Shown: piece after piece, positions 15,601 through 17,163 of the stretch
Position numbering within the stretch: position 1 is the stretch's first letter
Layout of the letters: the number at the start of each line of letters is the position of its first letter
Assembly: GCF_030013205.1 (NCBI RefSeq)
Contig: NZ_CP122648.1
Source of the DNA: Escherichia coli
GTDB lineage: Bacteria; Pseudomonadota; Gammaproteobacteria; Enterobacterales; Enterobacteriaceae
Length of the DNA: 64,000 bases
Direction: 5' to 3' (one strand)
Notes under the pieces: model-generated
Database searches by the model: none
Told to the model about the DNA's origin: nothing
What the model saw: the letters and a program-made list of their open reading frames with translations, nothing else
Made by a program: the position numbers and the translations under genes

Positions 15601-15774
15601 TATATTCGCACATCTTTAAAACGCGAATACGCCACCGAAAATGGCACGGAATTAAACGAGACACTGCCCAGACTCAGTCCTTTAAATCCGCAATATAAAA
15701 CGAAAAAACAGACTGTTTTTCAAAAAATTAGCGCATTTATTGAAAAATTTAAGGGGGTGGGTGGAAAGATTTAG
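12658..15774 (+). CDS. hsdR: Type I restriction enzyme endonuclease/helicase subunit R (type IC-like)
   Basis: 1038 aa; SF2 helicase motifs (TGSGKT Walker A, DECHRS DEAH-box); stop codon abuts the IS5 end. Confidence 0.85.
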
Positions 15775-16970
15775 GGAAGGTGCGAATAAGCAGGTCATTT
15801 CTTCCCAAGCTGACTCGCTGATTAAAATTTCGCGGATCTGGGCCGATTTTTTTCCCGCAAACACATCGAATCGGCCTATTTAGGCTATTTTTTCCACCAT
15901 TTCTGGCGTTATTTCCGGTTTTTACTGAGATCTCTCCCACTGACGTATCATTTGGTCCACCCGAAACAGGTTGGCCAGGGTGAATAACATCGCCAGTTGG
16001 TTATCGTTTTTCAGCAGCCCCTTGTATCTGGCTTTCACGAAGCCGAACTGCCGCTTGATGATGCGAAACGGGTGCTCCACCCTGGCACGGATGCTGGCTT
16101 TCATGTATTCGATGTTGATGGCCGTTTTGTTCTTGCGCGGATTCTGCTTCAAGGTTTTTACCTTGCCGGGACGCTCGGCGATCAGCCAGTCCACATCCAC
16201 CTCGGCCAGCTCCTCGCGCTGTGGCGCTCCTTGGTAGCCGGCATCGGCTGAGACAAATTGCTCCTCTCCATGAAGCAGATTACCCAGCTGATTGAGGTCA
16301 TGCTCGTTGGCCGCGGTGGTGACCAGGCTGTGGGTCAGGCCACTCTTGGCATCGACACCAATGTGGGCCTTCATGCCAAAGTGCCACTGATTGCCTTTCT
16401 TGGTCTGATGCATCTCCGGATCGCGTTGCTGCTCTTTGTTCTTGGTAGAGCTGGGTGCCTCAATGATGGTGGCATCCACCAAAGTGCCTTGGGTCATCAT
16501 GACGCCTGCTTCGGCCAGCCAGCGATTGATGGTCTTGAACAATTGACGGGCCAGTTGATGCTGCTCGAGCAGGTGGCGGAAATTCATGATGGTGGTGCGA
16601 TCCGGCAGGGCGCTATCCAGGGATAATCGGGCAAACAGGCGCATGGAGGCGATTTCGTACAGGGCATCTTCCATCGCGCCATCGCTCAGGTTGTACCAAT
16701 GCTGCATGCAGTGAATACGCAGCATGGTCTCCAGCGGATAGGGCCGTCGGCCATTGCCCGCCTTGGGATAAAACGGCTCGATGACAGCGGTCATATTCTG
16801 CCATGGCAGAATCTGCTCCATGCGGGAGAGGAAAATCTCTTTTCGGGTCTGACGGCGCTTAGTGCTGAATTCACTATCGGCGAAGGTGAGTTGATGGCTC
16901 ATGATGTCCCTCTGGGATGCGCTCCGGATGAATATGATGATCTCATATCAGGAACTTGTTCGCACCTTCC
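15775..16970 (-). mobile_element. IS5-family insertion sequence (variant of IS5), ~1196 bp
   Basis: Terminal inverted repeats GGAAGGTGCGAA...TTCGCACCTTCC; flanking 4-mers are TTAG and CTAA (not identical). Confidence 0.9.
15922..16902 (-). CDS. insH: IS5 transposase (InsH-like)
   Basis: 326-aa [38 protein letters not shown]... Confidence 0.9.
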
Positions 16971-17163
16971 CTAAGATAATTGGTTTTTAGCGAGTGACGG
17001 GCTAGGTTGTGTCAGTCTGTCTCATGTCGATATTACGGGGATGATGCAAACCTGAATGCTGCGATATTGGCGTGTCAGGGGAGGCATCTTACGGTATCAT
17101 TTACCGCAATTTTTAAGATGCAATGCCCTGCATCGCAGGCTTTTCTTCAGACCAGGATGATTC

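Follow-up and report, generated by a model that had tools for sequence, protein, structure and literature searches.

How an insertion sequence (IS) came to stand directly against the stop codon of an intact restriction gene, with a different 4-mer on either side and no direct target duplication, is the question raised by a locus in a 64,000-nucleotide stretch of an Escherichia coli chromosome, the whole of which is here called the window. A preliminary description of this DNA had placed an IS5-family element one base after the hsdR TAG stop, between the flanks TTAG and CTAA. This is borne out: the IS occupies window positions 15775-16970, its first base (15775) lies directly 3' of the stop, and the interval 15771-16974 given earlier equals the 1196-bp IS plus both 4-bp flanks. 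The same description had seen in these flanks, which are reverse complements of each other, a departure from the expected duplication, had attributed it to recombination between IS copies or to a deletion after hsdR, and had taken the element as the dividing line between an intact restriction locus and a decayed one.

The locus lies in a genomic island adjoining tRNA-Ser, ghrA and the csg genes, in a region where defence genes and debris of mobile elements form a dense mosaic; over window positions 14275-18470 the sequence matches that of swine enterotoxigenic and O139:H1 strains, K_EC180 among them, at 100% identity. To the left of the IS, on the plus strand, are hsdM (9736-11292; TIGR00497, E 1e-195), hsdS (11289-12536), identified from its RefSeq annotation and position, its two profile matches being weak and both far under the curated cut-offs, and hsdR (12658-15774; TIGR00348, E 1.4e-230). 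The HsdR product aligns from residue 1 to 1038 with the HsdR chains of EcoR124I/II (2282 bits), and this EcoR124-lineage subunit, with hsdM and hsdS upstream, identifies a type IC system. At 3117 bp, hsdR is of the same length as its IS-free homologues, and the event that produced the IS junction has left it undamaged.

To the right of the IS is the remnant of a second type I system (16971-18136, plus strand), made up of 193 bp of native upstream sequence and the 5' 973 bp of a further hsdM gene, hsdM2, with its start codon at 17164. This remnant is 98.7% identical to the intact operon of CRE1540 (locus L006, 6004-7169) and 93.6% to that of MRSN346595; its TIGR00497 match is partial, and RefSeq describes it as 'subunit M, incomplete, missing C-terminus'. 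The intact second operon comprises hsdM, hsdS, a YecA-family gene and a cold-shock-domain gene (in the E. coli versions), and hsdR. In the window hsdM2 is truncated at 18136 and continues, as a fusion, into the 3' portion of a DUF262/HNH (GmrSD-like) gene (18137-19471, plus strand), recognized from annotations and from positions 13282-15861 of loci L002/L004, which correspond to window 18136-20715. About 3.4 kb is missing at 18136 by comparison with Ecol_244 and NT1N25, where the corresponding sequence consists of the remaining part of hsdM2, one fragment each of hsdS and of a DDE transposase, and one and a half DUF262 genes. Hence the IS does mark the boundary between intact and decayed loci that had been proposed, with full-length hsdMSR on its left and the truncated hsdM2 on its right.

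Further to the right are a gene for a 1915-residue DUF4011 anti-phage protein (Hhe; 19646-25393) and, between 25600 and 30000, IS3-family fragments broken by a group II intron (ltrA) and followed by IS30. In strain TF5 (locus L007, 5601-6922), 1.3 kb of unrelated sequence stands where the window has a 10.2-kb block (15775-25985) composed of the IS, the remnants of hsdM2 and of the HNH gene, and Hhe. The breakpoint on the right, at window 25986, falls within the IS3-family transposase fragments, to the left of which protein identity is only about 54%; as it does so, the TF5-variable block is bounded by IS sequence on both sides.

The identity of the IS itself could be settled in some detail. 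The 12-nt terminal repeat GGAAGGTGCGAA has exactly two occurrences in the 64-kb window (0.28 expected by chance), which are inverted (15775-15786, plus; 16959-16970, minus) and delimit 1196 bp. The full terminal inverted repeats are imperfect, 16 bp long and matched at 15 of 16 bases: IRR, at the 3' end of the transposase gene, reads GGAAGGTGCGAATAAG (15775-15790, plus strand), and IRL, upstream of that gene, reads GGAAGGTGCGAACAAG on the minus strand (16955-16970). Between them an intact gene on the minus strand (15922-16902) codes in a single open reading frame for a DDE-type transposase of 326 residues, which matches the NCBIfam profile NF033581 for IS5-family transposases (E 5.6e-110; 367 bits, cutoff 140) and is RefSeq WP_000019448.1, the accession also borne by annotated ISKpn26 copies. 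Over its entire length the element matches, at 100% identity, copies that RefSeq labels 'IS5-like element ISKpn26 family transposase' in 15 swine E. coli genomes, and 1192 of its 1196 bases (99.7%) are shared both with the ISKpn26 of pNDM-CIT and with K-12 IS5Y, as against a DNA identity of 91.2% to the canonical K-12 IS5A. With near-identity for naming set at the isoform level (>95% DNA identity), the single-frame IS5-family DDE transposase, the length of about 1.2 kb, the 16-bp repeats and an identity above 95% all agree on a complete ISKpn26 (IS5 family, IS5 group). Judged by these sequence features, the element is ISKpn26, a type that K-12 also carries as IS5Y, and not canonical IS5, in keeping with the earlier remark that it differs visibly from the K-12 IS5. 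The K-12 MG1655 copy in lomR (NC_000913.3, 1427599-1428794) is likewise an ISKpn26-type element, 1196 bp long and flanked by CAAG/CAAG, and not a canonical IS5.

Only four substitutions, at 15873, 16675, 16678 and 16681, separate the window IS from the common ISKpn26 of pNDM-CIT and K-12 IS5Y. The last three, at 3-bp intervals, are synonymous and agree with IS5A, as if a short patch had been converted from an IS5-type copy. RefSeq also annotates a 63-residue 'hypothetical protein' on the minus strand (15749-15940), whose frame starts within the IS and exits through IRR into the 3' end of hsdR. It is probably an annotation artefact; read-out frames of other lengths are annotated likewise at the ISKpn26 copies of pNDM-CIT and K-12.

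Given these termini, the flanks are TTAG (15771-15774) and CTAA (16971-16974), which both conform to YTAR and are not identical, so that no 4-bp direct target duplication accompanies the window copy. Shifting the IS boundary, a check specified beforehand, yields identical flanks at no position, and copies with perfect duplications, in pNDM-CIT (TTAA/TTAA) and K-12 IS5Y (CAAG/CAAG), end at the very same bases. Freshly inserted ISKpn26 copies are reported to be 1196 bp long with a 4-bp duplication, for example CTAG in acrR (PMC8023600). Since other copies thus show TTAA/TTAA, CAAG/CAAG and CTAG/CTAG, the missing duplication is a matter of the history of the window copy, and not a property of the element.

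Comparison of hsdR 3' ends and of the sequence downstream in relatives accounts for each flank separately. TTAG is native to hsdR, its last three bases being the TAG stop (15772-15774), and it also ends hsdR at the IS-free loci L007, L008 and TBE6. Where no IS is present, hsdR continues with a conserved sequence, either TAGTAACAAAAGG, as in TF5, or CCGTAACAAAAGG, the longer reads being TAGTAACAAAAGGAAC in TF5 and CCGTAACAAAAGGAAC in a 96.5% relative; over its final 600 bp the IS-free TF5 hsdR is 100% identical to the window. CTAA, for its part, belongs natively to the promoter region of hsdM2, in the intergenic sequence 190 bp ahead of the gene. In intact hsdM2 operons GCTATCTTA stands directly before the right block, CTAAGATAA: the IS-free loci L005, L006 and L083 read ...GCTATCTTA then CTAAGATAATTGG at the CTAA junction, within the longer context ...GGATGCTATCTTA then CTAAGATAATTGG. 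Searches of the window recovered neither the native continuation of hsdR (TAGTAACAAAAGG or CCGTAACAAAAGG) nor the native upstream neighbour of hsdM2 (GCTATCTTA). A query for the contiguous empty site, composed of 600 bp of left and 600 bp of right flank, matched none of 5,426 complete E. coli genomes, in which the two halves were found separately and IS-free, and among the IS-free genomes examined none has the second operon downstream of the first. Because the native neighbours differ on each side and neither occurs in the window, a simple primary insertion into flanks that are contiguous in IS-free relatives is excluded on this comparison; TTAG and CTAA derive from two unrelated blocks joined by the IS. 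The absence of both native continuations also supports the earlier proposal of an IS-copy recombination or a deletion after hsdR.

One caveat concerns the relation between the two flanks. That the flanks form no direct duplication stands, as described above; their reverse complementarity is uninformative on mechanism, because the YTAR consensus is its own reverse complement. We accordingly rejected it as evidence of an inversion: the YTAR set is closed under reverse complementation, and recombination between copies predicts one 4-mer on the left and another on the right free of any reverse-complement constraint. A palindromic target, TTAGCTAA, receiving a blunt insertion was also considered, on account of right-flank matches that started 4 bases early in the empty-site query. 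This proved to be an alignment artefact, the native sequence being CTTA followed by CTAA and the two blocks being unrelated.

The second operon, which occurs in intact form in islands of other E. coli, is also known from plasmids. Among 72,556 plasmids searched, about 340 match the right flank from the first CTAA base onward, and no match extends into the IS, so that the right junction itself has 0 matches in this set. The twelve matching plasmids that were listed are all from K. pneumoniae, and the one fetched for context, p1605752FIB (locus L083, IncFIB/IncFII), reads ...GCTGTCTTA then CTAAGATAA, that is, ...GGATGCTGTCTTA then CTAAGATAATTGG. Its second type I operon is intact, with the first 429 bp (upstream sequence and hsdM2 start) 97.9% identical to the window, and another IS5-family element, ISEc68, lies about 1 kb upstream of the operon. 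These matches suggest that the window hsdM2 remnant may have a plasmid origin. Klebsiella plasmids are also the largest group among the plasmids that carry ISKpn26.

The flanks of other ISKpn26 copies place the present case in context. In 52 other ISKpn26-like copies the flanks are mainly YTAR, with TTAG (17), CTAA (13), CTAG (9) and TTAA (7) as the principal forms. Identical 4-bp flanks were found in only 5 of the 14 complete ISKpn26-like copies in the reference genomes of other species, the remaining 9 being unmatched, although all copies in this small sample keep a central TA. One K. michiganensis copy has the same TTAG/CTAA pair as the window, and the copy in E. coli TBE6 is flanked by TTAG/CTAG. 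The flanks in K. michiganensis DSM 25444 link up into a chain (TTAA/TTAG, TTAG/CTAA, CTAA/CTAG, CTAG/...), as if recombination between IS copies had permuted their duplications. Unmatched flanks are therefore common for ISKpn26, and the window presents an ordinary case of an already-known kind.

The junction is also widespread. Of 5,426 complete E. coli genomes, 212 (4%) share the left junction unchanged; both junctions recur in identical form in three further lineages, and they are the same in unrelated lineages with different hsdS alleles. Only 20 genomes cover at least 80% of a 4,196-bp query spanning the IS; among the next 20 records listed, 15 have a 2,857-bp two-piece match like that of VE-F10 and the other five have an IS3-family insertion. 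With just 20 of the 212 left-junction genomes spanning the whole IS region, altered right sides are the majority. VE-F10 lacks window 16826-17830 (1005 bp) and with it IRL, the start of the transposase gene and the first 667 bp of hsdM2; what is left of its IS is a dead remnant. NT1N25 has the same TTAG/CTAA flanks around a seamless ISKpn26/IS5 hybrid (L002 7498-8695, equivalent to window 15775-16970), whose first 70 bp or so are 100% ISKpn26-type and whose remainder is 99.3% K-12 IS5A-type. The switch lies within an 11-nt shared stretch, GCCGATTTTTT, and a crossover in so short a stretch would be unexpected for RecA-dependent recombination. Exact junction patterns had 0 matches in a metagenome collection and 0 in a species-representative collection; given its 4% frequency among complete E. 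coli genomes, the junction is evidently outside the coverage of both collections. The left junction is old and shared; we infer that it arose once and was then widely inherited or transferred.

Which events could have created it? If both breaks were random, the chance of the two flanks fitting YTAR would be (4/256)^2, or about 2e-4, and therefore both junctions appear to have been chosen by a transposase. This points to a secondary IS-mediated event, in which two copies recombined or a single one gave rise to an adjacent deletion or a cointegrate. Ngan et al. 2024 (PMC11708052) document that where a duplication is missing, the cause is usually recombination between IS copies or an adjacent deletion. 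On either course, an ISKpn26/IS5-type copy would first have inserted normally at one or both YTAR sites, with a 4-bp duplication, and a second IS-mediated event would then have swapped out one flank; the junction, formed once, would thereafter have been inherited or transferred widely.

We tentatively favour, at somewhat less than an even chance, recombination between two copies as the event that joined the hsdR block to the hsdM2 block at ISKpn26. In this course, two ISKpn26/IS5 copies in direct orientation, the first located at the hsdR TTAG and the second at the hsdM2 CTAA, would have undergone homologous recombination; copies on one molecule would have given a deletion, and copies on the island and a plasmid an integration followed by loss. 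The outcome would be a single IS with one half of each duplication. The slight lean towards this course comes from the IS-IS exchange visible in NT1N25 at the counterpart of the window junction, and from the presence of the second operon on plasmids of Klebsiella, the largest group among those with ISKpn26. A copy found in TBE6 3.8 kb downstream of hsdR was considered as a possible ancestor and rejected, its right flank being unrelated.

Nearly as likely, and likewise falling somewhat short of an even chance, is a transposase-driven course with a single copy. Here a normal insertion at one YTAR site would have been followed by attack of one IS end on the other YTAR site: with the target on the same molecule, replicative intramolecular transposition would have produced an adjacent deletion, and with the target on another molecule, a cointegrate would have formed and the second copy would have been lost. 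The kept copy would then be bordered by half of the original duplication on one side and by a single copy of the new target on the other, so that exactly the flanks observed, two different native YTAR 4-mers, are predicted, just as they are by recombination between two copies. Cointegrates and frequent adjacent deletions are known from IS5-family elements such as IS903, and in the long-term evolution experiment each of the 14 IS-associated deletions that lacked a duplication was an adjacent deletion (PMC11708052). The spread of ISKpn26 has been described as replicative-like transposition (PMC8023600). The window copy is the sole ISKpn26/IS5 copy on the swine-strain chromosomes, so that no partner survives there, and this too speaks for a single copy; the occurrence of the second operon on Klebsiella plasmids, given their prominence among ISKpn26 carriers, also fits the cointegrate form.

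Against the single-copy and the two-copy course alike, no first-step simple insertion is found in the 5,426 E. coli genomes or the 72,556 plasmids, and no IS-free genome examined has both blocks on one molecule in the needed order. Such a first step at hsdR would read GGAAAGATTTAG, the IS, then TTAG(TAG/CCG)TAACAAAAGG, and at hsdM2 GCTRTCTTACTAA, the IS, then CTAAGATAATTGG, with the IS in either orientation. Across the 5,426 complete E. coli genomes, the intermediate at hsdR (IS end, TTAG and native hsdR downstream sequence) had no match, and that at hsdM2 (native upstream sequence, then IS end) had no match reaching into the IS.

Much less probable is the capture of the IS at a double-strand break or deletion junction, in which the transposase would cleave no target, as proposed by Ngan et al. 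2024. Such capture gives the same kind of outcome, a lone IS centred on a deletion and free of a duplication (PMC11708052), but it is at odds with both 4-mers being good YTAR targets native to their own blocks, for which the chance is about 2e-4 if both junctions are random and about 1/64 if one of them is. Least credible of all, and refuted by the native contexts, is a simple insertion whose 4-bp duplication later diverged by point mutation, or whose boundaries were mis-assigned: TTAG and CTAA do differ by two transitions only, and single-base flank differences do occur at other copies (TTAG/CTAG in TBE6), but beyond the 4-mers neither side is related to what natively adjoins the other, the IS ends at the same bases as copies with perfect duplications, and an IS-free hsdR running straight into GATAATTGGTTTTTAG would be needed.

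The significance of the locus lies mainly in annotation, with an intact type IC hsdR, an IS that is ISKpn26 and a mosaic island in which one module boundary was made by an IS-mediated rearrangement. It adds one more natural example of the known rule that an IS lacking direct repeats marks a deletion, recombination or cointegrate junction, and it illustrates the assembly and erosion of defence islands. Structurally, defence modules are juxtaposed, and portable homology is provided for later exchanges. It is conceivable, if unlikely, that the ISKpn26 at the hsdR stop has been retained as such a handle, offering homology or a transposase target for swapping downstream defence modules, which in this case would be the second type I system, the DUF262/HNH genes and Hhe. 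Hints of this come from a left junction that stays constant while the content to its right varies, from the hybrid IS in NT1N25 and from the 9 of 14 copies with unmatched flanks. Taken jointly with this reading, an extension to resident ISKpn26 copies at large, by which most would lack matched duplications and secondary IS-mediated events would dominate, is similarly doubtful.

Comparison with known systems brings out what is shared and what is peculiar to the window. With ISKpn26 and IS5Y elsewhere, the window copy has in common the length of 1196 bp, an identical transposase, the same 16-bp repeats and YTAR-type flanks; it differs in its four substitutions and in flanks that form no direct duplication. 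Canonical IS5 (IS5A/insH1) is of the same family, with the same gene layout and the same first 17 and last 17 bases, and 319 of the 326 residues of K-12 InsH1 are identical to those of the window transposase. In contrast, canonical IS5 is 1195 bp long as against 1196 bp, its DNA identity to the window IS is 91.2%, and a stretch of 50 bp inside the IRR end is only about 70% identical. The duplication-less elements of Ngan et al. 2024 (PMC11708052) resemble the present one in that a single IS joins non-contiguous blocks, native neighbours are missing and there is no direct repeat; those were laboratory events, whereas an old natural event, with no intermediate, is seen here in 212 genomes. Finally, the restriction system shares with EcoR124I/II an HsdR alignable over all 1038 residues and the order hsdM-hsdS-hsdR, but that system resides on plasmid R124, whereas the one described here belongs to a chromosomal island at tRNA-Ser and ghrA, and its hsdS allele varies among carriers.
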